A DNA stretch of 64,000 bases, taken from an uncultured archaeon (GTDB taxonomy: Archaea; Thermoproteota; Bathyarchaeia; TCS64). Positions within the stretch are counted from its first letter, which is position 1, and every line of letters begins with the position of its first letter. Under the pieces are notes generated by a model. The model was not told the DNA's origin and ran no database searches. It saw nothing but the letters and a program-made list of their open reading frames with translations. Positions 1,183 to 64,000 of this stretch are shown here, in pieces. The stretch covers positions 5,525 through 69,524 of the forward strand of contig CALIUM010000005.1 of the NCBI GenBank assembly GCA_938048735.1. Reading direction: 5' to 3'. The position numbers were made by a program, and so were the translations under genes.

Positions 1183-1286
1183 GCGGGGGTTCCCGAGACT
1201 GGCCAAAGGGGCGAGACTTAAGATCCTGAGCTCGGGAAGAGATCTCGTGGCTTAGGCCTTCGTGGGTTCGAGTCCCACCCCCCGCA
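1183..1286 (+). tRNA. tRNA-Leu (anticodon UAA) with a ~19 nt intron after position 37
   Basis: Acceptor GCGGGGG/CCCCCGC, anticodon stem CGAGA/UCUCG, loop CUUAAG|intron|A, long variable arm UGGCUUAGGCCUUC (class II), T-arm GUGGG-UUCGAGU-CCCAC, discriminator A. The intron sits at the canonical archaeal 37/38 site. Confidence 0.8.
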
Positions 1287-5195: not shown

Positions 5196-5719
5196 CAGCT
5201 TAATATCTTCGTTAAGATATCCGAGCCTGCCGTGACGAATATGACCCCTAGGAGGATGAGTACGATGCCTAGGAGCTTCCCCATGTCTTGGCCCGCTAGG
5301 CTTCCGATCATCTCAGCATCCTTTGAGAGGTAGGCCCCAGCGCAGAAGATCTCCTCCCCTATTAGTGCATAGTCACAGGCTGCGACGAAGAAGGGGATCT
5401 GATGGATGTTGGCGGTCCCTCCAACCTGGATCGTTCCTATTCTAGCCCCAGTCTCGGCGAGCTGAAGGGACTCAGCCCAGTAGGCACCCACCATTATGTT
5501 GGCAGCCGCCCTCTCCCTCCACATCCAGCCCATATAGTTGGAGGAGAATCCGAACTGATCAGAGGAGAGGTATCTCACCTGTTCTGTTGGGTTGAAGTCT
5601 TCCGGGCGGCCGGCCTTTTTATATCCTGTCTCAGCGAGCTCGACTGCTATGGGCCATATGACCAGTTGCCTGACTGGGACATAGAGCCTCGTCCCAAGCT
5701 CCGCGCACTTCTCAGCCAC
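5192..5719 (-). CDS. hypothetical protein with soluble N-terminal domain and C-terminal TM helix
   Basis: 175 aa ORF. It is the first gene of a co-directional cluster located 212 bp downstream of cooC. Confidence 0.5.
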   Translation of the reverse strand: MAEKCAELGTRLYVPVRQLVIWPIAVELAETGYKKAGRPEDFNPTEQVRYLSSDQFGFSSNYMGWMWRERAAANIMVGAYWAESLQLAETGARIGTIQVGGTANIHQIPFFVAACDYALIGEEIFCAGAYLSKDAEMIGSLAGQDMGKLLGIVLILLGVIFVTAGSDILTKILSW

Positions 5720-8225: not shown

Positions 8226-8238
8226 CTATCACCACCTC

Positions 8239-9447: not shown

Positions 9448-9451
9448 GAGG

Positions 9452-10846: not shown

Positions 10847-11398
10847 CTAGCCCGCCCCCTCCAGGTTAGATACAATTCTATCTAAAATCTCTATCCACTC
10901 CTCCTGCGGTGAGTATCCCAGAGACCAGCCCGCGTTTGGGTGGTAGGTGTTGTCCAGTGAGATGGTTCTGAGGGATGGGGCGAAGTTCTTCAGGCCCGAG
11001 AGGACTAGCCACTCTAGGTAGTATGGTAGGCCCATGAAGACGGCGAGATCATAGGGGCCCCCGTTATCAAGGCCGCTCCAGCTCGGGTCCCTGAGTCTGT
11101 CTCCAAGCTCCATTATGGAGATCCCGTGGACTCCCACGGCTCCCCTCCTTCTGAACTCCCCTGAAATGTGGCCTGTGGCCGCGATGGTTATCCTCTTAGA
11201 ACTGGCCATCCTGATGGCGGTGTCGATCAGGTCTCCGTCCTTCGTCTTGACCTTTATGGCCTCTGAGCCCACCACAAGAAGGATCCTTCTCGCCCTATTC
11301 ATCATCGAGGCGGCGACCTCCGGCTTGGGGATGAGGAATGCCTTCTTAGGGCCTGCTATCTCGGCCGTCTGCCCTGTGGTTAACTTGGCCGACATCAC
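10847..11398 (-). CDS. cdhB: ACDS epsilon subunit
   Basis: 183 aa ORF immediately after cdhA (ATGA overlap). Size and position are typical of CdhB. Confidence 0.75.
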   Translation of the reverse strand: MMSAKLTTGQTAEIAGPKKAFLIPKPEVAASMMNRARRILLVVGSEAIKVKTKDGDLIDTAIRMASSKRITIAATGHISGEFRRRGAVGVHGISIMELGDRLRDPSWSGLDNGGPYDLAVFMGLPYYLEWLVLSGLKNFAPSLRTISLDNTYHPNAGWSLGYSPQEEWIEILDRIVSNLEGAG

Positions 11399-13761
11399 AG
11401 ACGCCTCCTAATGAGCCTCTCTAGTAGGGTTGGATCTGGTGATGCTATCTTCCCTTCCACCCACCCTGCTTTCTCTAGGGCGGCCACCACCTGGTCCCTC
11501 ATTGTGAAGGGTATGTCGGCGTTGCTCCTTACGTAGAGGTGGAGGTCGGGAGGCATCTCTCCGTAATACCGCTGGTAGAGGTCTATGTAGTGGCTTAGCT
11601 TAACCGCCCTTCCCTTGCTGGTGTCGTTGGGGCGCATGGTGAGCTTGGCTACCATCACGATCGCCTCCTCAACAGTCTCGGCTGCGTAGAAGAGGTGCTC
11701 CGGCGCCGGGCCAATATAAACTCTCTCTCCGGTCCTGGCGTCGTAGACCATCCAGTCCTCCTCCCTCTCCCTTCTTCCCAAGAGCATCCTCCTATACTTG
11801 GATCCATGAGGGCCCACAATGACTGGGATCCCGAGCCTCCAGCATCCCGCCGCTATGCTTGCAGCCTTCTGGGACATGGCTCCCCAGGCAACCCCCACAG
11901 CCCCAACCCTGTTGTAGATATAGTCGGCTATCTCCTCATAGTTAGCCCTTAAAGGGCGCTTGGCGAAAATATTGGCTATCTTTATAGCTGCTCCCGTTAT
12001 GTGGGCGTTGGAGATGCAGCTACCAACGTTGACAAGCCCTCCTGCGTCGAAGACCCCTGGGTACTTCTCGTAAAGGCTGAGGCCTTCCTCATCCTTCGTC
12101 ATTCCAATAGCCATCGCCGCGCATCCTGAGGCGACGACTATGAAGCGCCTCTTCAGGAACTCCTCAGCTATCCTAGCGACATCCCCCCCTCCCTCCGGGT
12201 AGTTGGCGCATCCAACAAGGGCCAACACCCCGGGGATCTCCCCGAAGACGATCGCCCTGCCCACCTCTCTTATCTCCACATCCTGGATCGCGCCTCTTCC
12301 AACCCTTATTTTAGACCTCTCTTCCGCGATCTTCTTCGATGCCGCTGCATTGATCATGCTGACTATGGGTAGATCCTCTGGACATGCGCTTTCACAGCGT
12401 CCGCAGCTCACGCAGAGATCATATAGGGATGAGAGAAGGGTGAAGTCTCCATTTCTGGCCAAGCTCATGGCTTCCATGATCGGGAGGTTGTTGGGGCAGG
12501 CTCTAGTACACTCTCCACAATGTCTACATCTCTTAGCCAACTCTCCAGACTCCTCAACTCCTAGAGGCCTCACCCCTTCTCTTCTTGGAGCTATCTTCAT
12601 CGCGACCTTTACAGCGACTTCTCCCACCTTACGGGGATCAAGTATGAGGGCGCCGGGTATCCTCCTCTCTACAAGGTCCTCGACTATTTTGTCGGGCTCA
12701 TCATGAGTTCTATCTGGGAGGCCATGACAGCTCATCTCACTCGTCGCGATTAGAGGAGACCCAATCTTCTTGCACTCTAATAGTACATCTGTCCTCACAC
12801 ATTGTTTATCTATAACCACTACATCGGGGATCCCTGATCTTATGAACCTAAGCTCCCATGATATCGGACCTATGATTCTTGCCCTCTTATTATATCTGGC
12901 CGTATCATGAGCTGTGCAGCATAATCCCCCTACCTCCACCTCTCCAAATAGCCCTTGATCCATTAAGTAATTCACTATCTCGACGCTCGGTAGCACCTCA
13001 TGCCCTATGACGAGTATCATGGGCTTCGAAGTATCTATTGCTCCGAATCCGAGATCCGCCAGTGGCGCCTCAGGCTCTCCCTTGGGAAATCCTAGGACTG
13101 AGATCTGGGCTATGTCGGCTATCTCCATTGCCACGTGGTCCAGCATGCCTACATGAAAGACCTTTGACTCGTAGTCGAGGTTGTTCCCCTCCTGACCGGT
13201 AGCGGTTGATGCTAGAAGTTGGACTATCTGGCTCTCCACATAAGATAGGGCGTCATCCAGGTCTCTCAGGGTTCTTGGCCTAAACCCGCATACGAGGCGG
13301 GTGTGAGGGGCCTCCACATTGGTATTCAGGGCGACATCGAGGGGTGTATCCCTCCCATATTCCTCGATCAGATGGTTGAGCATAGCCCTAGCATGTTCGG
13401 TATGGGCTGAAGCCCCTATGCAGCATGCTAAGAGGACAATCCTAGACTGTTGTCCAGCCATGGTTATGCCGCAGGCTCCCCTCTTATCACCTGTTAGATC
13501 GCATTTACCGAAGGTGCAGAGGCAGCATAGATCACAGAAGGGCATGTAGAAGGGCTTGTACCTGCTGAGCAGCTTAAGGTCCCATTCTCTTAGCGCTGTT
13601 ATATCCGGGAACGGTGTTGGGCCGAGGGGCTCCTCCCACTCCTCGAGGATCCTACCGACCTGTATCTCAACATCCTTGAATACTCCAAGAGTGGATGAGA
13701 ACTCCCCTATCTTCAGGCTGAGGTCTCTCTTGACCAAATCCCCACTCTCTCTAGACTCCAA
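11395..13761 (-). CDS. cdhA: ACDS alpha subunit (Ni-CODH catalytic subunit)
   Basis: 788 aa with the N-terminal Cys cluster MPFCDLCCLCTFGKCDL and ferredoxin-like CxxCxxCxxxCP motifs. The initiation codon is TTG. Confidence 0.9.
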   Translation of the reverse strand: MESRESGDLVKRDLSLKIGEFSSTLGVFKDVEIQVGRILEEWEEPLGPTPFPDITALREWDLKLLSRYKPFYMPFCDLCCLCTFGKCDLTGDKRGACGITMAGQQSRIVLLACCIGASAHTEHARAMLNHLIEEYGRDTPLDVALNTNVEAPHTRLVCGFRPRTLRDLDDALSYVESQIVQLLASTATGQEGNNLDYESKVFHVGMLDHVAMEIADIAQISVLGFPKGEPEAPLADLGFGAIDTSKPMILVIGHEVLPSVEIVNYLMDQGLFGEVEVGGLCCTAHDTARYNKRARIIGPISWELRFIRSGIPDVVVIDKQCVRTDVLLECKKIGSPLIATSEMSCHGLPDRTHDEPDKIVEDLVERRIPGALILDPRKVGEVAVKVAMKIAPRREGVRPLGVEESGELAKRCRHCGECTRACPNNLPIMEAMSLARNGDFTLLSSLYDLCVSCGRCESACPEDLPIVSMINAAASKKIAEERSKIRVGRGAIQDVEIREVGRAIVFGEIPGVLALVGCANYPEGGGDVARIAEEFLKRRFIVVASGCAAMAIGMTKDEEGLSLYEKYPGVFDAGGLVNVGSCISNAHITGAAIKIANIFAKRPLRANYEEIADYIYNRVGAVGVAWGAMSQKAASIAAGCWRLGIPVIVGPHGSKYRRMLLGRREREEDWMVYDARTGERVYIGPAPEHLFYAAETVEEAIVMVAKLTMRPNDTSKGRAVKLSHYIDLYQRYYGEMPPDLHLYVRSNADIPFTMRDQVVAALEKAGWVEGKIASPDPTLLERLIRRRL

Positions 13762-15286: not shown

Positions 15287-16279
15287 TTATTCCCTTAGAT
15301 TGGGGATTATCCTCCCTAAGAGGTTGATGGCCTCCTTAACGTTGGGGCCTAGGGGGGAGCCTGCGACGAACTGGGTGATCCCCTTCCCCCTTAGCTCTTG
15401 GATCTTCTCAACACACCTTCTAGGGGTTCCTGTTATGGAGAAGGATTCTACCATCTCATCGGTGACTTCTCTGAAGGCCTCCTCCCACCTCCTCTCAGCC
15501 AGTTTTGACCTTATCCTCTCAGCCGCCTCTTGTGCTATCCCATGCCTTGAGAGGATCTGGGGGGGGCTCCCTGCAACTATGTATGCCACCACGGGGATCG
15601 CAGCCCTTTGGGCCTTATCTCCATCCTCCGCTATGGAGAAGGAGGTGTAGGCGGCGATATCCAGATCCTCAATCCTCCTCCCAGCTTCCTCGGCCCCTTC
15701 TCTTATGCTCTTTACGGCCGAGGCGACGTCCTCAGGGTGGCAGGCATTTATCAGGATCCCGTCACCTAAGGAGCCAGCTAGGCGTAACATCCTTGGCCCC
15801 TGAGCACCTATGTAGATGGGTATGACGCCCTGAACCCTGAAGCTGAACCTGGCGCTGGGGGAGGCCTTGAAGATGCTTCCGCTATAGCCTTCCTTCGCCC
15901 TTGCAAGCTGTCTCCTTATGAGCTCAACAGCCTCTCTGACCGCGGTCAGAGGCGACTTCTGCTCCACCCCCACCATGTCCAGCGTCGTCTTGTCCCCTGC
16001 CCCTAACCCCAAGACGACCCTGCCTGGAGCTATCTCGCTTAGGGATGCTACGCCTTGAGCTGTCAATACGGGGTGTACGAGGTATGGGTTTGTTACCCCC
16101 GGGCCTAGAGTTATCCTCTCAGTGTAATTGGCTATCGTGCTTAAGATAACATAGACATTCCGGTTGTTGAAGTGGTCAGTTACCCAGATGTTATCGTATC
16201 CCAGCCTCTCCGCCTGGATCGAGTAGTATACCGTCCTCCAGTAGGGCTCCATGGGGACGAACTCTATCCCGAACCTCAT
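15287..16279 (-). CDS. mer: F420-dependent 5,10-methylene-H4MPT reductase (Mer; luciferase-like monooxygenase fold)
   Basis: N-terminus MRFGIEFVP...YYSIQAERLGYDNIWVTDHFNNRNVY..LGPGVTNPY aligns closely with methanogen Mer. Confidence 0.8.
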   Translation of the reverse strand: MRFGIEFVPMEPYWRTVYYSIQAERLGYDNIWVTDHFNNRNVYVILSTIANYTERITLGPGVTNPYLVHPVLTAQGVASLSEIAPGRVVLGLGAGDKTTLDMVGVEQKSPLTAVREAVELIRRQLARAKEGYSGSIFKASPSARFSFRVQGVIPIYIGAQGPRMLRLAGSLGDGILINACHPEDVASAVKSIREGAEEAGRRIEDLDIAAYTSFSIAEDGDKAQRAAIPVVAYIVAGSPPQILSRHGIAQEAAERIRSKLAERRWEEAFREVTDEMVESFSITGTPRRCVEKIQELRGKGITQFVAGSPLGPNVKEAINLLGRIIPNLRE

Positions 16280-16310
16280 TAGAACACCTCATTCTGGGTG
16301 AGGGGCTGGA

Positions 16311-16595
16311 TCACTGGGTGGAGCTGATCCTCTCAGCCAGCTCCCTCAGGCCAAACTCGTTCAGTATCGAGCCTGCCTTCGAGGGTTCCAGCTTATTTAA
16401 GGCCTCTAGGAGGATTGCTATTCCATCCTCGCTTTCAAGCGTATCCTTCTGCCAGTGGAAAAGGATCGACTTTGCTAGAGAGCTTGGGAGCCTCTCCCCC
16501 TCCCTGCTCTCGAGTAGGGCGTCTACGAGCCTCTCTGAGAGCCTCTTATAAATAGATCTTGGAATCCTCTCCACCATACTCCTATAATCCATCAT
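16311..16595 (-). CDS. small hypothetical protein
   Basis: The ORF was trimmed to an internal Met so that it does not overlap coaBC. No recognisable domain. Confidence 0.3.
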   Translation of the reverse strand: MMDYRSMVERIPRSIYKRLSERLVDALLESREGERLPSSLAKSILFHWQKDTLESEDGIAILLEALNKLEPSKAGSILNEFGLRELAERISSTQ

Positions 16596-16605
16596 AGATG
16601 CCTCT

Positions 16606-17892
16606 TCAGTGAATGTGTTCTTCCTCCTTAGAAGCCTTTTGCTTCTCCAGCCTCTCGACGAGCATAGAGACCAGGATTTTAGCAATCTCGTCCTTCCCTG
16701 TGAGGGGGATATGAACAACGTTCCTCTCTCCGTCTATTATGAAGACCTCGTTAGTCTCTTTCCCGAAGCCCACACCTTCCCTGGCAACATCGTTCGCCAC
16801 GATGAGATCCATCCCAGAGGCCTTCAGCCTCTCGTAGGCCCTCTCCACTAGAGCCTCATCGGATACGTTGAACTCCGCCTTAAAGCCTATGAGGAATATA
16901 CCTGGGTCAACCTCCCTGATATGGTCGACTATCTTTGGGAGTGGCTTCAGCTCGATGATCCACCTCCCCTTATCCGAGGGTGTTTTTATCATCTCCCTCC
17001 TCGTGGGTCCGAAGTCAGAGACCGCTGCCGTCAGGATGGCTGCGTCATGTTTCAAATCCTTAAGGGCCTTCACAGTGGCCTCCAGCATCTCATAAGTTGT
17101 CTCGACCCTTACCAGCCGGACCCTGGATGGGGGTTGAGCCGTCCCGGGGCCGTATATGAATGTTACCTCCGCCCCTCTACGCAATGCCTCCTCCGCTATC
17201 GCCACCCCCATCTTCCCAGAGCTTGGGTTGGATACGAACCTGAACGCGTCTATATACTCCCTCGTCGGGCCCGCGGTTACCAGGATCCTCCTACCCTCCA
17301 GCTCCCTAGAAGGCCTGAGCCTCCTCACCACAGCTTCAACGATCTCCTCTGTCTCAGGGATCTTCGCCTTCCCCTCCTCCACCCTAGGCATGAGGACCTC
17401 AACCCCTATAGACCTGAGCTTCTCGATGTTCTCCCTGACCACCGGATGGTTATACATCGATCCATGCATAGCTGGGGCTATTATGATCGGGATGCCCGAG
17501 CCTATCGCAGTGGTTAAAACAGTGGTCACCGGGGTATCATCTATAGCTGAGGCGGCCTTCCCTATCGTATTAGCCGTGCAGGGGGCCACGAGGATGAGGT
17601 CAGCTCTATTGGGATGCTCCCCCGCATATGTTACATGCTCGACCCTCCCCGTGAGCTCTGTGACCACTGGGTTGCCGGTGGCCCACTCCATCATGTAAGG
17701 GTGTAGTATCCTAGTAGCCATGGGTGTCATGACCGTGTAGACCTCGGCCCCCCGGCGCATGAGTTCACGGGCGATATCTGGGCTCCTGACGGCGGCTACG
17801 CTTCCAGTGATGCATAGAACAATTCTTCTCCCTTCCAGCTCTCTCCCCTTTGTCCCTGTGATCCCCTTAGATGTATGCGTTCCGAAAGCCAT
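16606..17892 (-). CDS. coaBC: bifunctional phosphopantothenoylcysteine decarboxylase / phosphopantothenate-cysteine ligase
   Basis: N-terminal flavoprotein domain (ILLCITGSVAA-like, PAMHxxMY) and C-terminal CoaB domain, 428 aa. Confidence 0.85.
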   Translation of the reverse strand: MAFGTHTSKGITGTKGRELEGRRIVLCITGSVAAVRSPDIARELMRRGAEVYTVMTPMATRILHPYMMEWATGNPVVTELTGRVEHVTYAGEHPNRADLILVAPCTANTIGKAASAIDDTPVTTVLTTAIGSGIPIIIAPAMHGSMYNHPVVRENIEKLRSIGVEVLMPRVEEGKAKIPETEEIVEAVVRRLRPSRELEGRRILVTAGPTREYIDAFRFVSNPSSGKMGVAIAEEALRRGAEVTFIYGPGTAQPPSRVRLVRVETTYEMLEATVKALKDLKHDAAILTAAVSDFGPTRREMIKTPSDKGRWIIELKPLPKIVDHIREVDPGIFLIGFKAEFNVSDEALVERAYERLKASGMDLIVANDVAREGVGFGKETNEVFIIDGERNVVHIPLTGKDEIAKILVSMLVERLEKQKASKEEEHIH

Positions 17893-17941
17893 CTAGAGGC
17901 CTCTATTGAGCTGCGTTTTGGGATAAAAAAATCTATTTAGG

Positions 17942-18079
17942 CTATAGGGATTCGGTCCTCTCCTCTAACTCGTCGAGGCGTTCCTCGATCTCATCCAAGC
18001 GTTCCTCTATATCCTCTATCTTCTCCATCAGAACCTTCAACTCTTCCTCAACATCTCTTAATCTGTCCTCGAGGCTCAA
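17942..18079 (-). CDS. small coiled-coil protein (hypothetical, ~28-46 aa)
   Basis: Unannotated small ORF on the minus strand. It translates to MEKIEDIEERLDEIEERLDELEERTESL with a perfectly periodic acidic repeat. It lies between the dCMP deaminase gene and coaBC. Confidence 0.25.
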   Translation of the reverse strand: MSLEDRLRDVEEELKVLMEKIEDIEERLDEIEERLDELEERTESL

Positions 18080-18186
18080 CCTTGATCTCCCTCACCCAAT
18101 CATCCAAGATGGTTTATAAACTTAGCCCCTAAGCTTTGGAATATGGGCTTCGAGTTAAGGCTTTCAGGATGTAAAATTGGGAGGTC

Positions 18187-18702
18187 CTAGGAGGAGCCTC
18201 CCTTCCCCTTCTTAGCCTTCTCAAGCTCCCCGAGATACCAGTTTGTGTCTTCGGCCACCCAGTCCTTCACCTTGAGCCTTAAAGGCCTTCCATCCTCCTT
18301 CAGGATCACCACCTCCTCTATCTCCGAGTTTATTATCTTCCTCCTGCACCTCTGACATGGGATGGCTGAGGTATATCTTCCATCCGCCTCCACCCCGGCT
18401 ATGTAGAGGGTTGCTCCAACCCTATCAGCCCGATTTGAGTTTATTATGGCGTTCTCCTCGGCGTGGACGGCGGGGCAGAGGTCATATGAGCTCTGGGAGG
18501 GCAGATTTAGCTCGTCCTTTATGCATCCAGCCTGATAACAGTTGATCACCCCCTTCGCGGTCCCATTATAACCCGTGCCCACTATCGTGTCGTCCTTCAC
18601 GATCACGGCGCCGATCCTCCTCCTGAGGCAGGTCGAACGGGCTGCAACAGCTAGGGCTATATCGAGAAAGTATCTCGTCTTATCGGGGCGGCTCGTAGGC
18701 AT
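18187..18702 (-). CDS. dCMP deaminase / cytidine-deoxycytidylate deaminase family
   Basis: Zinc-binding motifs HAEENAI and PCQRC, 171 aa. Confidence 0.8.
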   Translation of the reverse strand: MPTSRPDKTRYFLDIALAVAARSTCLRRRIGAVIVKDDTIVGTGYNGTAKGVINCYQAGCIKDELNLPSQSSYDLCPAVHAEENAIINSNRADRVGATLYIAGVEADGRYTSAIPCQRCRRKIINSEIEEVVILKEDGRPLRLKVKDWVAEDTNWYLGELEKAKKGKGGSS

Positions 18703-28585: not shown

Positions 28586-30376
28586 ATGGAGAGGCTGATC
28601 CACAACGGCGTACTGGTACCTACAAAGTATGAGGCGAAGGGGCTTAGAGTCTGGGTTAGGGGGGTTGAGGTCAGGCTGACCTCAGAGCAGGAGGAGATGG
28701 CTGTGGCATGGGCTAGGAAGATAGGGACGCCATACGTCGAGGATCCGGTCTTCGCCGGTAACTTTCATCGAGATTTCTCCAAGAAGCTTGGGATAGAGGT
28801 CAAGCCCGGAGATGTTGACTACTCAGAGGTCCTCAGAGAGGTCATGAGAGAGAGGGAGTACAGGGCAAGACTGACCAGGGAGGAGAGGAAGAGGCTGGCT
28901 GAGGAGAGGAGGAGAATTAGGGAGGAGAGAAAGGAGTTATACGGCTACGCCTGGGTCGACGGGATAAGGATGGAGGTAGGGAACTACACAGTTGAGCCCA
29001 GCTCCATATTCATGGGCCGGGGAAACCATCCGAGGCGTGGATCCTGGAAGGAGGGGCCGAAGGAGGAGGATATAGAACTCAATCTCTCCCCAGATGCCCC
29101 GAGGCCTAAGGGCAACTGGAAGGCCATAGTGTGGGATCCCGACGCTATGTGGATAGCCAGGTGGAGGGATAAGCTGAGCGGGAGGATGAAGTATGTCTGG
29201 CTCTCAGAATCCTCCTACCTCAAGCAGAGGAGGGAGCTGGAGAAGTTCGAGAAGGCTAGAGAGCTGGGAAACAACATAGAGAGGGTTAAGAGGCACATCT
29301 TTGAGAACCTCTCCTCTAAGGATCCTAAGAGGAGGAAGACCGCGACTGTATGCTACCTTATAGACGCCCTGAAGATACGGGTCGGGGACGAGAAGGATGA
29401 GGATGAAGCCGACACGGTGGGAGCCTCAACCCTTAGGCCGGAGCACTTAACCTTCAACGAGGATGGCACGGTAACCTTCGACTTCCTCGGGAAGGACTCA
29501 ATTCGCCACCTCATCACCGCTAGGTTGCCTGAGGAGGTTGTGAGGAACCTTAAGGAGTTCATGGCCGAGGCACGATCAACCATATTCGAGGGCGTGGACT
29601 CTGAGAGGGTCAGCGAGTTTCTAAACGAGGTCCACCAAGGTCTATCGGCCAAGGTCTTCAGGACCTTCTACGCAACGAGCGCTGTAGAGAAAGAATTGAT
29701 GAGGAGGAGAGTTAAGGAGAATGATCCTAAATATTTAAAAAGATATATTGCAATTATGGCGAATCTTGAGGCTGCAAAAATATGTAACCATAAAAGGGCA
29801 ATACCTAAGAACTGGGAATCATCTCTAAAGAAAAAAGTTGAAAAAATTGAAAAATTAAAAATTGAATATAAAAAATTGGAAAAAAATCTGAAAGAAAAAA
29901 TGAAGGAAATAGATGTGCGCTTTAAAGATAGATTATATAAAAAAGTGAAGGGTTTAAATGAAGAAAGAAGAAAGATGGATGAAATAAAAGAAATTATAGA
30001 AAAGAGAAGGATTGAAGGAAAATCTATAGATAGCTTAAAGGAGAGGTTAATTAAAAAGAAGAATAATGTTGAAAATTTAAGGAATAGTATAAGGAAAATA
30101 AAAAATGAATGGGGGGTTTATAGAAAAAGAGTGATTAATAGATTGGATGAATTGAAGGCCAGATATCGAAAGAAGCTTGAGGAGCTCAGAATCCAAGTGG
30201 AGATCCAGAGGGAGACCCGCGACTACAACCTAGGTACATCCCTTAAAAGTTACATAGATCCCCGGGTATACTATGAGTGGGGCGAGAGAATCGGATACAG
30301 CTGGAGAGAGTACTATCCTGCAACTCTCCAGAGAAAGTTCAGCTGGGTAGAGGCCCGGAAAACGCAGACCGGGTAG
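28586..30376 (+). CDS. eukaryote-type DNA topoisomerase IB
   Basis: The core aligns to human TOP1 with all catalytic residues present (R in ASTLRPEHL, K in FLGKDSIRH, R in AKVFRTFYA, H in KICNHKRA, Y in SLKSYIDPR). A Lys/Glu-rich coiled-coil linker precedes the Tyr domain. Confidence 0.85.
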   Translation: MERLIHNGVLVPTKYEAKGLRVWVRGVEVRLTSEQEEMAVAWARKIGTPYVEDPVFAGNFHRDFSKKLGIEVKPGDVDYSEVLREVMREREYRARLTREERKRLAEERRRIREERKELYGYAWVDGIRMEVGNYTVEPSSIFMGRGNHPRRGSWKEGPKEEDIELNLSPDAPRPKGNWKAIVWDPDAMWIARWRDKLSGRMKYVWLSESSYLKQRRELEKFEKARELGNNIERVKRHIFENLSSKDPKRRKTATVCYLIDALKIRVGDEKDEDEADTVGASTLRPEHLTFNEDGTVTFDFLGKDSIRHLITARLPEEVVRNLKEFMAEARSTIFEGVDSERVSEFLNEVHQGLSAKVFRTFYATSAVEKELMRRRVKENDPKYLKRYIAIMANLEAAKICNHKRAIPKNWESSLKKKVEKIEKLKIEYKKLEKNLKEKMKEIDVRFKDRLYKKVKGLNEERRKMDEIKEIIEKRRIEGKSIDSLKERLIKKKNNVENLRNSIRKIKNEWGVYRKRVINRLDELKARYRKKLEELRIQVEIQRETRDYNLGTSLKSYIDPRVYYEWGERIGYSWREYYPATLQRKFSWVEARKTQTG

Positions 30377-51018: not shown

Positions 51019-51771
51019 TCAGGCCTCTATCTCCAGCTTTTCTAGCTCCTCAAGCTCTTTAAGTACCTCCCTCCTGAGCTGCTCCAGCTTCTCATCGATC
51101 TCAGACCTCTTAGGAGCCTTAGGCTTCTCGACCTCCCCCTCCTTGGCCTCTCTCTCAGCCTCCTCTTTGCCCTCCTCCTTGACCCTTCTCCTCTTCTTCT
51201 CCAACTCAGGCTGAGCCTCTGGCTGAGCCTTCAACTCACCTATATTCAACTCCTTCAGGATGGAATCTATCTTCCTCTGGGTGTTGTTCAAGGTCGCCTC
51301 AAATTTTTTGATTATCTCATTCCTTATGTTCTCAAGCTCGTGGAGGGTCAATATCAACTCTGATCGCTTGATCTCCTCTGCAACCCTCTTCATCTCATCC
51401 TCATAATCCTTTGAGATCCTTATCCGCTCCTCCCGGGTTATCTCCCCGAGGTCCTCCGCCTCGAATAGTCTCTTCAGGGCCATGCTTAGAAGCTCCCTTC
51501 TCAGGGTGAGGATCCTGATCTCACTCCTAGCCTTCTCTACCTGGCCTGGCTGTATATACCTCGCAGTATCGGGTGCTTGACGCCCTTCCCCAGAGGGGGC
51601 CAAGGCCTTGTCAACCTCGGCCACCGGGGCCTTCTCCACCCCAGGCACTTCAATTTCCTTATTCGCCCCTCTCCCCCCCTTCGTAGCCCTCACAAAGAGG
51701 TATATAGCCAATACGGCCACGGCGATGGCGCCAACTCCAACCATCAGCTCCGCTGAAATAGGAGCCTCCAT
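51019..51771 (-). CDS. membrane-anchored coiled-coil protein (hypothetical)
   Basis: One N-terminal TM helix followed by a ~200 aa charged, heptad-rich sequence, 250 aa. Confidence 0.45.
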   Translation of the reverse strand: MEAPISAELMVGVGAIAVAVLAIYLFVRATKGGRGANKEIEVPGVEKAPVAEVDKALAPSGEGRQAPDTARYIQPGQVEKARSEIRILTLRRELLSMALKRLFEAEDLGEITREERIRISKDYEDEMKRVAEEIKRSELILTLHELENIRNEIIKKFEATLNNTQRKIDSILKELNIGELKAQPEAQPELEKKRRRVKEEGKEEAEREAKEGEVEKPKAPKRSEIDEKLEQLRREVLKELEELEKLEIEA

Positions 51772-51892: not shown

Positions 51893-52495
51893 CTATGTGG
51901 ATTCTGCTGTTTTCGGGGTTTCTGAAAGGTTTATGACGATGTCCATCTTGCTAAGGAGAAGATCCATGAGATACCTTTCGACCTTGGAGACCCCCGTTCC
52001 ATAATCGAAAGAGAGAGAGCCTCCATAATAACCATTTCCTATGAAGGTCTTTGATGCCTCTAATACCTCAAATACTGCCTTGTAGCATCCAGACTGGAAA
52101 TATATCGAGACATCATTAATGAACAATATAGGGGTAGGATCATCTAGAAATTCTCTCAGAAGGGGCTCTATGAATTTCCTATTGGCCTCAACCATAAGCA
52201 GCAGCTGGCCCGGTGATGTGGCTGAGAGTCTAGGAGCCATGACCATGCTGGGTTGGAGGTATCTAATCCCTCCAGGCAGCTTCATCATCTCAGCTATACA
52301 TCCACCGATTCTCCTCCCACCATACACCATGGTTCTAGGCGCCATATCTATTATTGTGATGTCCCTCGAATAGCCTCTGGCTAAGGCGTCACCCAGGATC
52401 CTGATGGTCATCCCTGTCTTTCCAACTCCGACATCTCCAACTATGAGAGTCCTCTTCAAAATATAATCCTTGAATTTACTACTTAAAGTCAACAT
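51893..52495 (-). CDS. P-loop NTPase (uncharacterised; distant GPN-loop/ParA-like similarity)
   Basis: Walker A IVGDVGVGKTGMT near the N-terminus and a Walker B-like IIDMAP, 200 aa. Confidence 0.5.
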   Translation of the reverse strand: MLTLSSKFKDYILKRTLIVGDVGVGKTGMTIRILGDALARGYSRDITIIDMAPRTMVYGGRRIGGCIAEMMKLPGGIRYLQPSMVMAPRLSATSPGQLLLMVEANRKFIEPLLREFLDDPTPILFINDVSIYFQSGCYKAVFEVLEASKTFIGNGYYGGSLSFDYGTGVSKVERYLMDLLLSKMDIVINLSETPKTAEST

Positions 52496-57772: not shown

Positions 57773-59749
57773 TTAGGAGATTATTATTGGAACTATTAAA
57801 AGTGCGGCCATGTTCATCAATTTCATGAATATGTTGAGCGATGGACCAGCAACATCTTTCAGGGGATCTCCAACGGTATCCCCGGTCACGGCCGCCGCAT
57901 GAGTAGGAGTGCCCTTCATCCAGAACTCCCTTTCAATGTGTTTTTTAGCGTTATCCCATATACCCCCTCCGAAGGTGAAGAAGGGGGATAATATGGAGGA
58001 GGAGGTAAGAGCTCCCAAGAGCATGGCGCTTAGAGCATACTTTCCAAGGAGCAGCCCAACTATCATTGGAGCGGCTATCCCTAGCAGCCCTGGAAGGGGC
58101 ATCTGATATAGGGCATATCTGGTGGCTATGTCCACACACCTTGAGTAGTCTGGCCTCTCCCTCCCTTCTAGGATTCCTGGGTGCTCCCTGAATTGTCTTC
58201 TAACCTCTTCAACCACCCTGTAGGCTGTTCTGGCTGTGGCACCTATAGCATAGGAGGAGAAGAGGAATGGGAGGACCCCTCCCAAAAGGACACCTACTAT
58301 AAAGGAGGGGTCTACGGAGAAGGCCTCCAGCCTGACCCCGGTCATCTCGTTAAAGGTTACTAGGATCACGACGGATGAGAAGGCTCCACTCGCTGCGGCG
58401 AAGGCCTTTGTGTAGGCCTTGGTGGTGTTACCCATGGAGTCGAGCTCGGACAGAGCCTCTAGGCTCTTCCTACCTGTCCCAGCCATCTCGGCTATGCCGG
58501 CTGCATTATCGCTTATAGGGCCGAAGGCATCGCCCGACATGATTATACCTGTGGCTAGGTCTGTACCTAGATTGGCTCCGACTATACCATATAGGGAGCC
58601 CCCTGTTATGTGATATGAGAAGAGAATGCTCAAAAGTACCAGAAGTATTGGTATGAAGGGGCTTTGTAATGCATATGATAAACCGGTTATGATGTTTATG
58701 GCCGCTCCATACTCGGATGATCTAGCCACATTTCTAACGGGGAATCTTTCTAATCCCAAGTAATGCTGGGAAACCAGACCGATGATGAGCATGGTCACCA
58801 TGCCACTCAGAACGGAGTAGAAAATCCTCATGTCCCCAAGTAAGAGAATCGAAGAGATGAGGGCTCCAATAGAGCATAAGGCAACGGTAACTATCAGGCT
58901 TATGTTAAAGGATGTCATGGGCTTTATACCTCTCCACCTTCTTGTGATGAGGATCCCTATGATGGTCGAAGATACACCGACGACGCCAAGTGCCAGTGGA
59001 AAAAGAGCCGAATCCCTCCCAAGGGGGTGTAGGAGTAGTGAGCCTAGGAGCATCGCTGTCACGTAGTCGTCGCTTATAGATTCGAAGAGGTCTGAACCTC
59101 TTCCTGCGCAGTCACCAACGTTATCCCCGACCTGGTCAGCTATGACGGCTGGGTTTCTAGGATCATCCTCAGGTATCTTATGCTCTATTTTACCCACCAG
59201 GTCCGCTCCAATGTCTGCAGCCTTTGTGAATATGCCCCCTCCCAACTGGGCGAAGAGGGCTGATAAGCTTGAACCAAAGCCAAAGGCTATTAGAGGGGCT
59301 GGATCCCTAAATAGCCAGACAAGTGTTGAAACTCCTAGGAGGCTTAGTCCCGTCACGGATAATCCCATTATGCCTCCCCCTCTGAAGGCTGTTGAGAAGG
59401 CCTTCGATGGGGATGACATCGCTGCGTATGCTGTCCTCACATTAGCCCTCACCGCTACCACCATACCTATGTAGGCCGAGAGTAGGGATAGGAAGACGCC
59501 TGATAGGAAGGATCCAACATATCTTGGATCTCTCGTAAAGATCCACAGGATGGTTGAAATGAGAAGGGAGAATAGGATTATCGTCCTATACTGCCTTCTG
59601 ATGAAGGCCTTGGCCCCCTCCTCTATAGAACTGGCTATACTGAGCATATGGTCGTCCTCCACTGGCTCCCTTATGATGGAGTAGGCTAGATACGCCATGA
59701 CAGCCATCGCCAATAGGCCTGTAAATATGGGGGCGAAATAGGGATCCAT
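57773..59749 (-). CDS. hppA: membrane-bound proton/sodium-translocating pyrophosphatase
   Basis: 658 aa polytopic protein with V-PPase motifs (GGIWDNAKKHIE, DxVGDNVGD). Confidence 0.9.
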   Translation of the reverse strand: MDPYFAPIFTGLLAMAVMAYLAYSIIREPVEDDHMLSIASSIEEGAKAFIRRQYRTIILFSLLISTILWIFTRDPRYVGSFLSGVFLSLLSAYIGMVVAVRANVRTAYAAMSSPSKAFSTAFRGGGIMGLSVTGLSLLGVSTLVWLFRDPAPLIAFGFGSSLSALFAQLGGGIFTKAADIGADLVGKIEHKIPEDDPRNPAVIADQVGDNVGDCAGRGSDLFESISDDYVTAMLLGSLLLHPLGRDSALFPLALGVVGVSSTIIGILITRRWRGIKPMTSFNISLIVTVALCSIGALISSILLLGDMRIFYSVLSGMVTMLIIGLVSQHYLGLERFPVRNVARSSEYGAAINIITGLSYALQSPFIPILLVLLSILFSYHITGGSLYGIVGANLGTDLATGIIMSGDAFGPISDNAAGIAEMAGTGRKSLEALSELDSMGNTTKAYTKAFAAASGAFSSVVILVTFNEMTGVRLEAFSVDPSFIVGVLLGGVLPFLFSSYAIGATARTAYRVVEEVRRQFREHPGILEGRERPDYSRCVDIATRYALYQMPLPGLLGIAAPMIVGLLLGKYALSAMLLGALTSSSILSPFFTFGGGIWDNAKKHIEREFWMKGTPTHAAAVTGDTVGDPLKDVAGPSLNIFMKLMNMAALLIVPIIIS

Positions 59750-60085
59750 CCCTCAGCCTCCTTAAAGCGAATCGGCGATATGCCACAACTTAATAAGCTT
59801 TATTTTCAGTTCAAGTGGGCCTCCCAGTAGATTTTGTTGTTGGAATTTAACCTTAGATATAAATTTATTTGTTTTTTCTTCGTAAAATTACTTAATTAAT
59901 GTCTTTTTAGTTGACCTCCAACCTTTTGGAGGGTGTCCCAACACCCCATAAAAGCCTCTTTTTCAAACCCTTTCGATCAATAGTTCCGTCTCCGAAGAGG
60001 CATAAATGAACCAAACCCTTTTTCAAACTTCACCTCTATAGAATGATTGCTGATCGATTTGGGCGAGGCCTCCACTTCCAAGGTG

Positions 60086-63000
60086 ATGGAAAGGATCCAA
60101 CTGTGGAAGCAGAGGCTCATCGACCTGAGCATGCGGAACCGCCTGATCTATTTCACCCCCGCAAAGAGCTCCTATATTGGTATATCGACTCCAGACATGA
60201 AGACCATCTTCGAGAGGCTAGTTGTCAAGGGGAAGGGGTGGGAGATCTGGCAGCCTCCAAGGGATGGATGGATGAATGCTTCAAGGTCTACGCGTCCTGG
60301 GAGGAGCCAGCTCGTGCCCCAAACAGATGATCCTCAACTGGTTGAGCGGACCCTGAGGAGCCTCTATAGACGCTCCACATCAGAGTACAGAGAGAGAGGT
60401 GTTAGAATCCTCTACATGACCTTTGGAATGCTCAACTGGAGGGAGGCCGGGTCAGGGGAGGCGATAAGGTCCCCGATACTTCTAGTTCCAATAGAGTTGA
60501 GGAGGGATAACCCCCGCTCACCCTACAGGGTAGAGGTTCCTCCCGTGGAGGAGGAGGTGGTCCTGAATCCTGCCTTAACCCTCAAGCTGAGGTATGATTA
60601 TAAGTTCGAGCTCCCACCCCTCCCGGACTTCGAGGAGGTAGATGTTCTCAGCTACCTCCAAGAGGTTTCAGCCTCCTGTGGGGAGCTGGGGTGGAAGGTG
60701 GAGGGGGAGGTGGGGATCGGGCTCTTCTCCTTTTACAAGTTGGTGATGTACCAAGACCTCTCCGAGAATGCCGATGAGATAGCTAAGAACCCGATCATAT
60801 CAGCTCTAGCTGGGATGCCGAACCCGAAGCTGATAAAGGGCCCTCTCCCTAGGGAGGATGAACTCGACGAGATACTTGAGCCGAAGAAGATGTTCCAAGT
60901 TCTCGACGCCGACAGCAGCCAGCAGCTCTGCATCCAGTATGCTTTGAGGGGCCAGTCCTTCGTCATCCATGGCCCACCAGGCACGGGGAAGAGCCAGACG
61001 ATAGCCAACATCATATCCGAGTTTATAGCCGCTGGGAGGAGTGTCCTATTCGTAAGCGAGAAGATGGCTGCCCTAGAGGTGGTCTACAACAGGCTGAAGG
61101 AGAGGGGGCTGGATGACTTCTGCCTCGAGCTCCACAGCCACAAGGCGAACAAGAGGGAGGTGGTCGCGGAACTTAACAGAGCACTGAACGAGCACCTGAA
61201 GCCAAGGGCTAGGCTATCCGAAGAGGAGCTGGATAGGCTGAAGGAGAGGAGGGACCTCCTCAACAGCTATGTGAAGGCCCTGCATATGGAGAGACCACCC
61301 TTAGGGCTCTCAGCCTTCGAGCTGCTCGGGAGGCTCGCCAAGCTTGAGGATGCTCCATTCATCCCGTCGGAGTATCAGGGACTCAAATCCCTCACCCCCC
61401 AGAAGCTCCAAGAACTGGAGAAATTGGTAAGAGACCTCTCAAATGTGTGGTACATCGCATTAGAGGGGAGGTTTCCATGGAGGGGGTGCAGGGAGGAGGC
61501 CTTCACCTCTGAATCCCGCTCCAGGTGGGCAACCCTACTCAGGCAGCTCCTCGAGGCCTTGGAGGAGCTGGAGGCCATCAGAGGCTACAGCGAGATGCTG
61601 GGCCTAGGTGTCCCGAGAACTCTTGGGGAGCTTGAGAGGTTGAGGGAGATCTCCATCCTGGTTTCGAGCTCCCCTAGGCCCCCAAGAAGATGGCTTGAGG
61701 GGGGAGGGCTGAAAGGGATAGAGGAGGAGGCCCTGAAAAGGCTTGAGGGCTACTCAGAGTATTGGAGGTCTAGGGATAAGCTGATGAAGCTATACAGCCC
61801 AAGCATATTCAGGCTTCCAAGGGGGGTCGCGGATGAGGCTGAGAGGAGATGGGCGAGGGTAAAGGAGTTATTATCTCAGAACACTGATGACGACGTAGAC
61901 CTCCCAAGGCTTAGAGAAGAGTTGGCCCCCTATGTGGAGGCCTTGCCCAGATCGATGGAGGAGTGGAAAACCCAAGCAGCTGAGATAGCCGGCATATTCG
62001 GCCTACAGGTGAAGATCGACTCGATAGAGAAGATAGCCAGAATGGCTGAGCTTGCGAGCCTCTGCGAGGCTAAAAATAGGCCGGAGGCGGAGTGGCTCGA
62101 CATAGAAGGCCTGAAAGAGGCGACGAAGACGATCAGGGAGGCTGAGGGGTTATACCTTCGCAGGGATGGCCTGAAAAAGGATCTGCTGGAGAGATATCAT
62201 GATGATTTTCTAAACCTAGATCCAAAACCCATAATAGATTGGCTCGAGGGGCCGGGCAGCTCCCCATTCAGATACCTTAGACCTCAGTACCACCGGATCA
62301 GGGGGCTCCTCACAAGGATGAGCAGAAGACGGGAGCCTCTGAACAGGATTTTAGAGGATCTAAAGGCCGTTGAGGAGTTGAGAACTCTTGAGGATGAGAT
62401 AGCCTCCCGTCGAGAGGACCTCAGGAGGGTAATGAAGTCATATTACAGGGATCCCACCCCCGACTTCAACTCCGCTGGGGAGGCCCTGAAGAACGCCTGG
62501 AAAGCCCTAAAGATAACGGGGGGAAGGCGGATCCCCCTAGGGGTGGCCCTCAACCTCGCAGCTGGAAGTAGACCCTCAGAGGAGCTTCTACTCACCGGGA
62601 GGAGGCTCAGAGCCGCCCTGAACGAGTGGAGGCTGAGAACCCTAAAGCTGAGGGGCCTCCTCCCATATGGGAAGCTTCCGAATACGGGTAAGCCTCTTAC
62701 AAAGAGCCCCCTTGACATGGTGGCGGAATGGTCATCTGAGCTGGCTAGAAGGTTCTCCTTCCTGGATGAGGTATGCGCCCCAGCATTATCATCGAGGTTC
62801 TCGGATCACCCCCATTCCCTAGCGGAGCTCATCTCCGACTTGAGGGAGGTGGAGGCCCTCCAAGCCTTTGAGGAAGCTGTTGAGGCAGAGTCTGAGGAGG
62901 TTAAAGCTATCTTTGGTAGGCGATATACCGGCATAACGACGGATTGGTCCGCTATACTTGGGGATATAGATTGGTGTAAGAGGCTTCTAAGCATCCTAAA

Positions 63001-64000
63001 GGAGCCCCCACAACCCCTCATAGCCTACATCTCGGATGGAGGGTTCCCTCCTCCCCCCGATCCTGAGATAGGCCCAAGGCTGGAGAGGCTCTACGGCCTG
63101 ATGAAAACCCTTGAAGACGGCTTCACTCAACCCCTATGGGGTAAGGATAGAGGGACCCTAACCCTTGAGGAGATCAGGGGGAAGGTCTCGGAGCTGCGCT
63201 CCAGGCTTGATGAGCTCCAATCCTGGGTTGACTTCAAGAGGATCACGGCGGATCTAGAGGGGAAAGGGCTCGGAGAATTCCTGAGGAGGCTATTAGAACT
63301 CAAGCCCGAGGCCTCGAGGCTGCTGGATGTGTTCCATAAGTCTATTTACAGCGGCCTCATAGACCTCATCTTCCAAGAGGAGCCTATCTTAGGAAGCTTC
63401 AGGGGGCAGAGGCATGAGCAGCTGATAAGGGAGTTTCAGGAGCTGGACCAGAGGTTCATCGCCCTCTCAGCCTCCCGCGTCATAGAGAGGGCAAATGAGC
63501 AGAAGCCTCAGGGGGTCTTCCTACAGGTCCCGGACTCCGAGATAGCCATCCTGAGGAGGGAGGCCCTCAAGAAGAGCCGGCACATGCCCATCCGAAACCT
63601 CTTCGAGAGGATCCCGACCCTCCTCAAGAGGCTTAAACCCTGCCTCCTCATGAGCCCCATCTCGGTGAGCCAGTTCCTCTCTCCAAAGCTCCGCTTCGAC
63701 CTGGTGATCTTCGATGAGGCCTCCCAGATATGCACAGAGGACGCTGTGGGAGCCATCTATAGGGGGGATCAGCTGATCGTGGCCGGTGACAACAAGCAGC
63801 TCCCCCCAACCCCATTCTTCCAGTACTCTTTGGATGAGGATTTCGACTGGGATGAGACATTCGATTACGAGCTCGATGTCTTCGAGAGCGTCCTAGATGA
63901 GTGCCTATCCATAGGGTTGCCCGTGAATATGTTAAGATGGCATTATAGAAGCAGGCATGACTCCCTGATAAACTTCTCAAACGAGAGGTTCTACGAGAGA
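60086..64000 (+). CDS. DUF4011 / Upf1-like superfamily-1 helicase, very large (≥1305 aa; 3' end outside window)
   Basis: Open frame from ATG 60086 to the window end with no stop. N-terminal DUF4011-like LIDLSMRNRLIYF, Walker A GPPGTGKSQT (~61.0 kb), Walker B VIFDEASQI (~63.7 kb), and WHYRSRHDSLINFSN near the end. The six-frame track lists only a short out-of-frame ORF here. Confidence 0.8.
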   Translation, partial: MERIQLWKQRLIDLSMRNRLIYFTPAKSSYIGISTPDMKTIFERLVVKGKGWEIWQPPRDGWMNASRSTRPGRSQLVPQTDDPQLVERTLRSLYRRSTSEYRERGVRILYMTFGMLNWREAGSGEAIRSPILLVPIELRRDNPRSPYRVEVPPVEEEVVLNPALTLKLRYDYKFELPPLPDFEEVDVLSYLQEVSASCGELGWKVEGEVGIGLFSFYKLVMYQDLSENADEIAKNPIISALAGMPNPKLIKGPLPREDELDEILEPKKMFQVLDADSSQQLCIQYALRGQSFVIHGPPGTGKSQTIANIISEFIAAGRSVLFVSEKMAALEVVYNRLKERGLDDFCLELHSHKANKREVVAELNRALNEHLKPRARLSEEELDRLKERRDLLNSYVKALHMERPPLGLSAFELLGRLAKLEDAPFIPSEYQGLKSLTPQKLQELEKLVRDLSNVWYIALEGRFPWRGCREEAFTSESRSRWATLLRQLLEALEELEAIRGYSEMLGLGVPRTLGELERLREISILVSSSPRPPRRWLEGGGLKGIEEEALKRLEGYSEYWRSRDKLMKLYSPSIFRLPRGVADEAERRWARVKELLSQNTDDDVDLPRLREELAPYVEALPRSMEEWKTQAAEIAGIFGLQVKIDSIEKIARMAELASLCEAKNRPEAEWLDIEGLKEATKTIREAEGLYLRRDGLKKDLLERYHDDFLNLDPKPIIDWLEGPGSSPFRYLRPQYHRIRGLLTRMSRRREPLNRILEDLKAVEELRTLEDEIASRREDLRRVMKSYYRDPTPDFNSAGEALKNAWKALKITGGRRIPLGVALNLAAGSRPSEELLLTGRRLRAALNEWRLRTLKLRGLLPYGKLPNTGKPLTKSPLDMVAEWSSELARRFSFLDEVCAPALSSRFSDHPHSLAELISDLREVEALQAFEEAVEAESEEVKAIFGRRYTGITTDWSAILGDIDWCKRLLSILKEPPQPLIAYISDGGFPPPPDPEIGPRLERLYGLMKTLEDGFTQPLWGKDRGTLTLEEIRGKVSELRSRLDELQSWVDFKRITADLEGKGLGEFLRRLLELKPEASRLLDVFHKSIYSGLIDLIFQEEPILGSFRGQRHEQLIREFQELDQRFIALSASRVIERANEQKPQGVFLQVPDSEIAILRREALKKSRHMPIRNLFERIPTLLKRLKPCLLMSPISVSQFLSPKLRFDLVIFDEASQICTEDAVGAIYRGDQLIVAGDNKQLPPTPFFQYSLDEDFDWDETFDYELDVFESVLDECLSIGLPVNMLRWHYRSRHDSLINFSNERFYER

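Follow-up and report, generated by a model that had tools for sequence, protein, structure and literature searches.

Can a gene that belongs by homology to a family of anti-phage enzymes be a fixed part of an archaeal chromosome, and what would its product do there? This question is raised by a stretch of 64,000 nucleotides (nt) from an uncultured archaeon (GTDB lineage Archaea; Thermoproteota; Bathyarchaeia; TCS64), which corresponds to positions 5,525 to 69,524 of the forward strand of contig CALIUM010000005.1 in the GenBank assembly GCA_938048735.1. The whole stretch is referred to as the window hereafter. A giant gene on its forward strand, encoding a helicase of superfamily 1 (SF1), runs off the window end, and a first-pass annotation, made from the letters alone, had proposed it as a candidate defence gene. 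The architecture and the family assignment of this gene, a DUF4011 domain combined with an Upf1-like SF1B helicase, are secure. Judged from sequence comparisons, the gene is fixed and vertically inherited in this lineage and is not a mobile accessory. Our reading, held with middling confidence, is that it encodes a defence-like surveillance enzyme of the single-gene DUF4011/ProA/PDC-S37/Hhe family, fixed in a Bathyarchaeia lineage. The kind of gene is already known, and PADLOC would call it PDC-S37; what is new is the lineage-fixed clade with a rewired Vsr-like site.

Architecture and family of the protein

The frame that begins with ATG 60086 (forward strand, frame 1) is free of stops for 1,305 codons up to position 64000 and runs past the window end, just as the first-pass annotation had described; from the base composition of the segment, such a stop-free run would arise by chance with a probability of about 5e-25. 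The gene probably begins slightly upstream and occupies 60047..64000 (forward strand), where the window end truncates it after the N-terminal ~1,318 codons of ~1,850 amino acids (aa). When compared with full-length relatives of 1,846-1,860 aa, the window fragment accounts for the N-terminal ~70% of the gene. Residue numbers of the window protein are counted below from ATG 60086, and all domains and motifs lie on the forward strand.

The N-terminal part is a DUF4011 domain. The Pfam profile (PF13195) is matched in full (positions 1-158) by residues 10-168 (60113..60589) with 93.8 bits against a gathering cut-off of 22.2, and the DUF4011 motif LIDLSMRNRLIYF is located at residues 11-23 (60116-60154). 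This region is predicted to adopt an alpha/beta fold over residues ~1-230, i.e., to nt 60775, with predicted local distance difference test (pLDDT) values of about 80-90. The residues conserved in it throughout the family (W7, N18, P36, G105, W118, P130, P135, N161, P162, K218 and D224) are mostly structural.

The DUF4011 domain is followed by a helicase core that is split in two, and Pfam AAA_11 was accordingly matched as a split domain. The first half of RecA1 (60866..61285, delimited by Pfam and motifs) contains the Q-motif region DADSSQQ (60905-60925), the Walker A motif GPPGTGKSQT (residues 296-305, 60971-61000) and the motif Ia-like sequence LFVSEKMAALEVV (61046-61084), and its motif residues are invariant in 109 to 196 homologues. 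The second half (63536..64000) contains the Walker B motif FDEASQ (residues 1209-1214, 63710-63727), motif III GDNKQLPPT (63785-63811) and WHYRSRH (residues 1285-1291, 63938-63958); the PDB sequence matches to Sen1 and Dna2 land in this half. All of the motifs that the first-pass annotation had quoted were thus recovered in the translation. Between Walker A and Walker B, RecA1 is interrupted by an all-alpha-helical insertion of ~750 aa (61286..63535), which is homologous throughout the family and carries the conserved residues W465, W536, W670, W954, W963 and W1047. In a model of the N-terminal part (AlphaFold2, window residues 1-1200, 62-sequence alignment, mean pLDDT 78), the insertion appears at residues ~400-1130 and is confident (pLDDT 85-93). 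Structure searches gave only noise matches for the insertion, and no solved structural counterpart of it was found: a Foldseek search of the N-terminal model against the PDB, for which a multidomain query of 1,200 residues is a poor one, returned only coiled coils of SMC, MukB and dynein at template-modelling (TM) scores <0.1.

RecA2, the nuclease domain and the winged helices fall past the window end, since the window stops at residue 1,305. The full-length relatives add AAA_12 (RecA2), the Vsr-like domain REase_MTES_1575 and tandem winged helices, and some of them also DUF3320. REase_MTES_1575 (PF18741) scores 97.6 bits against a cut-off of 38.2 and is present in all full-length relatives, including those of 89-92% identity; the C-terminal nuclease of the PD-(D/E)xK/Vsr-like type, which the first-pass annotation could only predict, is therefore what every full-length relative has, sometimes with DUF3320. 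The last 657 residues of the 89%-identical relative were modelled with a pLDDT of 68, the model being poor only in the orphaned RecA1 half. Its RecA2 folds like those of Upf1, Dna2, SETX/Sen1, Aquarius and IGHMBP2 (E = 1e-6 to 1e-4), and the ~170 residues at its C-terminal end look like the tandem winged helices of SelB. The window itself covers helicase motifs I, Ia, II and III; motifs V and VI could be read in the relatives only, where they are invariant, and across 109 full-length relatives not one of the helicase motifs varies.

The Pfam matches to DUF4011 and AAA_11, the PDB sequence matches (Sen1, IGHMBP2, Upf1, DNA2 and ZNFX1) and the fold matches together bear out the architecture that had been proposed. 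With Upf1, Sen1/SETX, IGHMBP2, Dna2, Aquarius and ZNFX1, the gene has in common the motifs of the helicase core and the RecA2 fold, but only the core is common (E = 1e-9 to 1e-3), and none of these helicases carries DUF4011, the ~750-aa helical insertion or a C-terminus made up of a Vsr-like domain and winged helices. The link to ZNFX1-like antiviral proteins drawn by the first-pass annotation thus holds for the helicase core (E = 7.7e-4) and for nothing beyond it.

A search of 5.8 billion proteins found full-length relatives of 1,834-1,940 aa, of which the named ones come from metagenome-assembled genomes (MAGs) of Bathyarchaeota/Bathyarchaeia; in related MAGs the gene is already annotated as "DUF4011 domain-containing protein". 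The closest relative, P0004, is 94% identical over 88% of the query, its match being cut by a scaffold gap, and 92% identical over the whole fragment by tblastn; the next ones are 90% (P0001) and 89% identical. Among species-representative genomes, 13 loci were matched with a single-protein query, all of them in Bathyarchaeota. The family as a whole is very large and conserved in length: when its first 1,200 residues in the window protein were used for an exhaustive search, 5,714 clusters at 50% identity were obtained (E <=1e-30), and most of the best 150 clusters align end-to-end through the helical insertion, at ~1,830-1,900 aa. Few of these cluster representatives carry a name, but at least some of the more distant ones are bacterial (Bacillota, Obscuribacterales).

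When the protein was compared with defence models, PDC-S37, ProA and Hhe were the best matches. For the window fragment, PADLOC gave 833 bits for PDC-S37 against 306 bits for Hhe, and NCBIfam gave 815 bits for the anti-phage model ProA (NF058533) against 503 bits for Hhe. Membership in PDC-S37 was judged by an end-to-end match to the single-gene model PDLC05009, and such a match was found: the relatives score 1,392-1,426 bits over profile positions 8-1543 of 1550, in three stretches, and the 90%-identical P0001 matches end-to-end with 1,392 bits. The PADLOC model of Hhe gave 535-542 bits for the full-length relatives. ProA and PDC-S37 have the same domain order as the relatives, namely DUF4011, a split SF1 helicase, a Vsr-like nuclease and a C-terminal domain.

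Among characterised proteins, the closest homologue is Hhe (1,911 aa) of E. coli and Klebsiella. Like the relatives, it combines DUF4011 with a helicase of the Upf1 type that harbours a large insertion and with a nuclease resembling Vsr. In the nuclease, Hhe and the relatives share GxxCDGxxY and RDRDRLR...LGW, and the identity between them is ~40%, in this domain only. Protection by Hhe has been reported against the phages lambda, T3, T7 and PhiV-1, and it is lost when the nuclease site is mutated. Class II DNA-metabolism genes of T7 act as triggers, and the trigger is toxic only when Hhe is present.

Inheritance of the gene in Bathyarchaeia

The positions of the gene and its neighbours in related genomes provide a clue to how it has been inherited. 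In the 17 kb upstream of it in the window, genes were found for an H+-pyrophosphatase (H+-PPase), an AIRS-like protein, a CoA-transferase, tRNA-Thr, an SBF transporter, Rpi, GcvT and a P-type ATPase. The loci of the relatives with 92, 89 and 78% identity have the same upstream gene order as the window, and the 92% and 78% loci share the downstream genes DDAH, XPF, MobB and PCC. At the 58%-identity locus the H+-PPase gene still adjoins the helicase gene, and at the loci of ~52% identity the AIRS-like and CoA-transferase genes still lie immediately upstream. Across these loci, the identities to the window are 92/89/78/58/52% for the helicase, 95/93/80/69% for H+-PPase, 97/86/79/57-61% for the AIRS-like protein and 98/97/88/72% for CoA-transferase; the divergence of the helicase is proportional to that of its neighbours. 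The ratio of nonsynonymous to synonymous substitution rates (dN/dS) lies at 0.15-0.16 in the helicase, compared with 0.04-0.15 in the neighbours.

More distant relatives sit among other housekeeping genes, and in the ~12 loci examined the surroundings include PheRS, ribosomal proteins, Alba, Asp/AsnRS, XPF and RLI. No restriction-modification (RM), methyltransferase, CRISPR or other defence or mobile-element genes were found in the 17 kb upstream or in the relatives' loci examined. Toxin-antitoxin modules (VapBC-like PIN, MNT/HepT, HEPN, RHH) do occur near the helicase locus in three related genomes, at differing positions (L001 15732-16449; L002 14475-15342; L003 653-2356), and are absent at L022. 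No relative of at least 46% identity was found on viral contigs or plasmids, where the searches gave only relatives of <=42% identity; some distant members of the family are carried by plasmids of haloarchaea and bacteria, and others lie on viral contigs.

Two apparent disruptions of the gene were rejected. The split gene in QZM_A1_bin_46 (L002/L008) is not a pseudogene but is interrupted by a scaffold gap of 51 N, and the truncated helicase followed by SIR2 on CP070640 (L015/L023) is not a disruption or fusion but results from a gap of 100 N. These N runs inside the helicase gene, at L015/L023 13910-14009 (CP070640.1, labelled a complete chromosome) and at L002 ~8083-8133, are the source of proteins wrongly recorded as "partial" and of an open reading frame (ORF) in which the helicase seems to be fused to SIR2. 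Both gaps and the window end fall within the helicase gene.

Such conservation is what a domesticated housekeeping enzyme would exhibit, for example one that, like Dna2 or Sen1/senataxin, processes R-loops or the intermediates of replication or repair and that has no immune role, and we consider this explanation possible, if somewhat doubtful. It is in line with the synteny with the CoA-transferase, AIRS-like and H+-PPase genes that persists down to 52-58% helicase identity with proportional divergence, with a dN/dS of ~0.15 similar to that of the neighbours, with the housekeeping character of all the ~12 loci, with the identity of the nearest solved helicases (Dna2, Sen1/SETX and Upf1), and with the maintenance of the remodelled nuclease site, described below, across a monophyletic clade of 56 members. 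The window, too, is core chromosome, with its carbon monoxide dehydrogenase (CODH)/acetyl-CoA synthase (ACS) operon and topoisomerase IB gene; HMG-CoA reductase is also encoded there. A further parallel is the P. aeruginosa DUF4011 gene PA14_RS11765, a core gene present in every isolate that flanks the core defence hotspot cDHS1. Here as there, a large, fixed DUF4011 gene stands beside a variable region, represented in our case by the toxin-antitoxin inserts of three relatives; the P. aeruginosa gene differs in being bacterial, and the two are likened by description, not by sequence. This explanation is opposed by the fact that the closest characterised homologue, Hhe, is a validated anti-phage protein, that the best-scoring models are all defence models, and that the wider family occurs on plasmids and viral contigs. 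Moreover, the conservation is that of the examined loci only, and fixed immune genes of the core genome exist.

With respect to flanking genes, it was also observed that the helicase gene of L006 (42% identity, with the canonical Glu kept) is flanked by a Dev_Cell_Death gene (9256-9660) and a 700-aa radical SAM/SPASM gene (16147-18249), and that a radical SAM gene also follows the core DUF4011 gene of P. aeruginosa.

The Vsr-like active site

The nuclease domain of the relatives was examined with residue numbers that follow P0001. The canonical motif of the family, G-[IV]-E-C-D-G-x-x-Y-H, has its Glu in 94 of the 98 diverse representatives with a detectable motif, and the combination of this Glu with the His is found in 68 of 83 sequences of the 30-39% identity bins. 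In the relatives that are at least 46% identical to the window protein, L, M, I, V or Q stands in the place of Glu, and in the window's clade the His is replaced by R, K, V or A, mostly by R or K: the sequence is GIQLDGENYR in P0001 and G[IV]LLDGENYR in P0002 to P0006. In a neighbor-joining tree the window's relatives form one clade of 56 tips, none of which has the Glu, so that the canonical Hhe-type motif is missing throughout this clade. On the other hand, D1547, D1566, Y1570 and RDRDRLR stay invariant there.

A clear mutual exclusion was found between two positions of the motif. Position 1564 is acidic and position 1568 is not in 132 sequences, the reverse (1568 being E or D) holds for 55 sequences, both are acidic in a single sequence, and neither is in 8. 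Fisher's test for the two acidities gives p ~1e-38, a value to be read with the fact that, phylogenetically, this is essentially one event, after which the residue was kept as E or D. Among PD-(D/E)xK nucleases, cases in which the catalytic carboxylate has been relocated are known. For this reason, and since E/D is kept at 1568, we read the nuclease site as rebuilt and not decayed: the carboxylate would have been shifted to D-G-[E/D] with loss of the His, and the site may still be active. The shift of the carboxylate together with the loss of the His also suggests that the substrate or the chemistry of the clade's nuclease is probably altered.

The same replacements raise the alternative that the protein is a nuclease-dead translocase, in which the Vsr-like domain only binds or regulates, like RAP domains, and the protein acts by ATP-driven remodelling, displacement or recruitment of an effector. 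The Glu is replaced in 56 of the 56 clade members and the His as well, and this His aligns with His69 of E. coli Vsr, which is catalytic. Hhe defence is abolished by mutation of what is most probably the same Glu: the motif Glu is E1727 in the 1,911-aa protein of E. coli/Klebsiella, position 1731 there is Ala, and the published E1731A mutation therefore probably hits this Glu under another numbering. Relative to RecA2, the nuclease domain is also less conserved in the window's clade than where the Glu is kept: the values are 0.62/0.74 for the former, and 0.72/0.81 and 0.54/0.52 for E-retaining clades. When the profile of the domain was compared with the PDB, RAP domains, which have no E-x-D-G, were the best sequence matches (E = 2.7e-5), ahead of 3HRL (E = 1.5e-3) and Vsr (E ~0.9). 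Against a dead enzyme speaks the invariance of D1547, D1566, Y1570 and RDRDRLR. With a mean pairwise identity of 0.62, the nuclease domain is also better conserved than DUF4011, at 0.55, and than the insertion and the C-terminal domain, at 0.43 each. In addition, the acidity of 1568 in 55 of the 63 sequences lacking Glu1564, as against 1 of the 133 keeping it, is the signature of a relocated carboxylate and not of decay. A nuclease-dead protein is thus unlikely, and we keep to the rebuilt site, noting that the loop after D-G is predicted with a pLDDT <50 in the C-terminal model.

The known proteins differ from the clade in related respects. Hhe retains the canonical I-E-C-D-G-A-A-Y-H, unlike the window's clade. 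3HRL (DUF559) has v-E-a-D-G...H, which is the motif of the canonical family, and Vsr was matched weakly through ERDRR...LGW; the window's clade lacks both the Glu of DUF559 and Hhe and the His shared with Vsr. Furthermore, Vsr, DUF559 and RAP are small stand-alone or differently fused domains, unlike the helicase-fused nuclease.

Function and surroundings of the gene

Based on these features, we propose that the protein would be an ATP-driven translocase on single-stranded nucleic acid, moving 5'-to-3' if the polarity follows that of its helicase class. It would carry the Vsr-like and winged-helix module to a substrate, which it would then cut or clamp, and DUF4011 and the helical insertion may be the sensing or autoinhibitory part. 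The likeliest role, by homology with Hhe, would be the surveillance of foreign or aberrant replication intermediates. Defence by Hhe depends on the nuclease site, and phage functions in DNA metabolism appear to set it off.

Several observations weigh against a defence-like enzyme. One group concerns the homology itself. The defence role of archaeal members is an unproven extension from bacterial homologues, and the label "defence gene" for the window gene is likewise unproven and derives from homology. The relatives fall below the curated equivalog cut-offs of both ProA and Hhe: full-length relatives of 56-90% identity reach 1,329-1,348 bits against the 1,500 bits of ProA, and full-length relatives reach 810-838 bits against the 2,000 bits of Hhe (NF042953). 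The ProA cut-off is likewise missed by five diverse relatives, of which at least one is bacterial, and most of the family is therefore "ProA-like" and not ProA. The first ~357 profile positions of ProA are its own and have no counterpart in the relatives, which are aligned from ~358 to 1903. PDC-S37 is itself an untested candidate of the "guilt-by-embedding" kind, as the PDC systems are 145 candidates put forward because they lie inside BREX, DISARM or type I RM loci. In the literature collection searched, no paper describing ProA or PDC-S37 was found, and neither name occurs in the supplement texts of the archaeal-immunity survey that were searched. The nuclease C-terminus, moreover, is known from relatives, the window gene stopping before that region, and the nuclease activity is uncertain, as the alignment of the window's clade lacks both the canonical Glu and the His.

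The other group concerns evolutionary behaviour. The neighbourhood is of the housekeeping kind, with only small toxin-antitoxin pairs sporadically inserted nearby, and purifying selection and long-lasting synteny are atypical of defence genes. Hhe of E. coli forms a contrast: it is accessory, being found in 309 of 5,426 complete genomes (5.7%), and nearly clonal (99.7% identity), and on a Klebsiella plasmid it adjoins a DUF262 gene and transposases. Taken together, homology points to immunity, and the evolutionary behaviour to a fixed role in the cell, be it in core innate immunity or as a domesticated enzyme. The proposal of a candidate defence gene therefore stands insofar as defence models match best, and is weakened by the missed cut-offs, by the lack of a defence island and by co-inheritance with housekeeping genes under purifying selection. 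The first-pass annotation had named, as observations that would speak against it, a full-length protein without nuclease or effector domain and orthologues conserved as housekeeping genes; a nuclease-type domain is present, which leaves the proposal unrefuted, and the orthologues are stably inherited chromosomal genes, which is half of the refuting pattern.

The 5' end of the gene and the spacer before it were also examined. In the frame of the helicase, the nearest upstream stop is TGA 60044, and the frame is open from there. The 39 nt 5' of ATG 60086 are in frame and conserved among relatives, the codon GTG 60083 varies synonymously among them (GTG/GTA/GTC), at least five residues precede the Met of ATG 60086 in 170 of 196 homologues, and the alignment column before this Met is a conserved V/I/L. 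Because of these conserved upstream codons and residues, ATG 60086 is probably not the start, and TTG 60047 or, as a second choice, TTG 60059 is the likely one. The H+-PPase gene (57773-59749, reverse strand) is divergent, with its start at 59749, so that the two genes have the intergenic region 59750..60046 in common. The AT-rich spacer of ~330 bp that had been annotated is real (336 bp from the H+-PPase start to ATG 60086, with a G+C content of 0.43-0.47 against 0.53-0.59 within the helicase gene), but the gene start that had been placed at ATG is probably not the right one. Within the spacer, the TATA-like block ATATAAATTTAT (59857-59868) lies 108 nt from the H+-PPase start codon and is conserved down to the 58%-identity relative. 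The best-conserved block, GAACCAAACCCTTTTTCAAA, occupies 60008-60027, some 20-40 nt before TTG 60047; this position and its conservation lead us to regard it as the putative B recognition element (BRE)/TATA promoter of the helicase gene.

A recently acquired gene of a mobile defence island, the picture implicit in the first-pass annotation, is highly improbable and already contradicted by synteny: the AT-richer spacer, the small toxin-antitoxin modules adjoining the gene in some relatives and the distant family members on plasmids and viral contigs are set against a G+C content of 0.53-0.59 equal to that of the neighbours, the lack of any integrase, transposase or tRNA-flanked island seen, the same position beside the same genes down to 52% identity and the fact that no relative of at least 46% identity was found on plasmids or viral contigs.

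Other features were noted elsewhere in the window. The CODH/ACS cluster (6813-13761, reverse strand) contains two CdhD-like genes and genes for CdhC/ACS beta and a Prismane/CODH alpha-like protein, and it marks the region as core Wood-Ljungdahl chromosome. A eukaryotic-type topoisomerase IB is encoded at 28586-30376 on the forward strand (Topoisom_I_N, Topoisom_I and Topo_C_assoc; E down to 2e-64). At 1183-1286 (forward strand), Rfam found a 104-nt tRNA (40.5 bits) that ARAGORN did not report; given its extra length, it may be an archaeal tRNA with an intron. On the reverse strand, no Pfam match was obtained for two ORFs of 250 and 200 aa (51019-51771 and 51893-52495); ORFs of like size, order and strand, also without Pfam match, occur in L001 (3571-4323, 4444-5043) and L022 (3559-4308, 4582-5172), having been matched by layout, and they may be uncharacterised lineage-specific proteins.

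A more far-reaching reading, which we put forward only tentatively, is that of an immune helicase-nuclease of the Hhe/ProA type that was fixed in the core chromosome of a deep Bathyarchaeia clade, its site rebuilt by a move of the carboxylate from the strand position 1564 to the loop position 1568 and by replacement of His with Arg/Lys. If this is true, the gene could be either a defence enzyme domesticated for cellular nucleic-acid processing or an innate immune gene of the core genome that does not move and works by a new chemistry. In both cases it offers a concrete example, of a core-genome immune gene or of a domesticated one. The mutually exclusive acidity of positions 1564 and 1568 bears on how the Vsr-like nucleases of this family build their active site. 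There is also a consequence for the counting of immune systems: with PADLOC-type tools the gene would come out as a "defence system" of an archaeon, and matches of this sort enter the counts of archaeal immunity surveys. This clade, however, descends vertically in the company of housekeeping genes, the purifying selection on it is of the ordinary kind, and its nuclease motif is rewired; defence calls based on homology can therefore mislead for this family in archaea.

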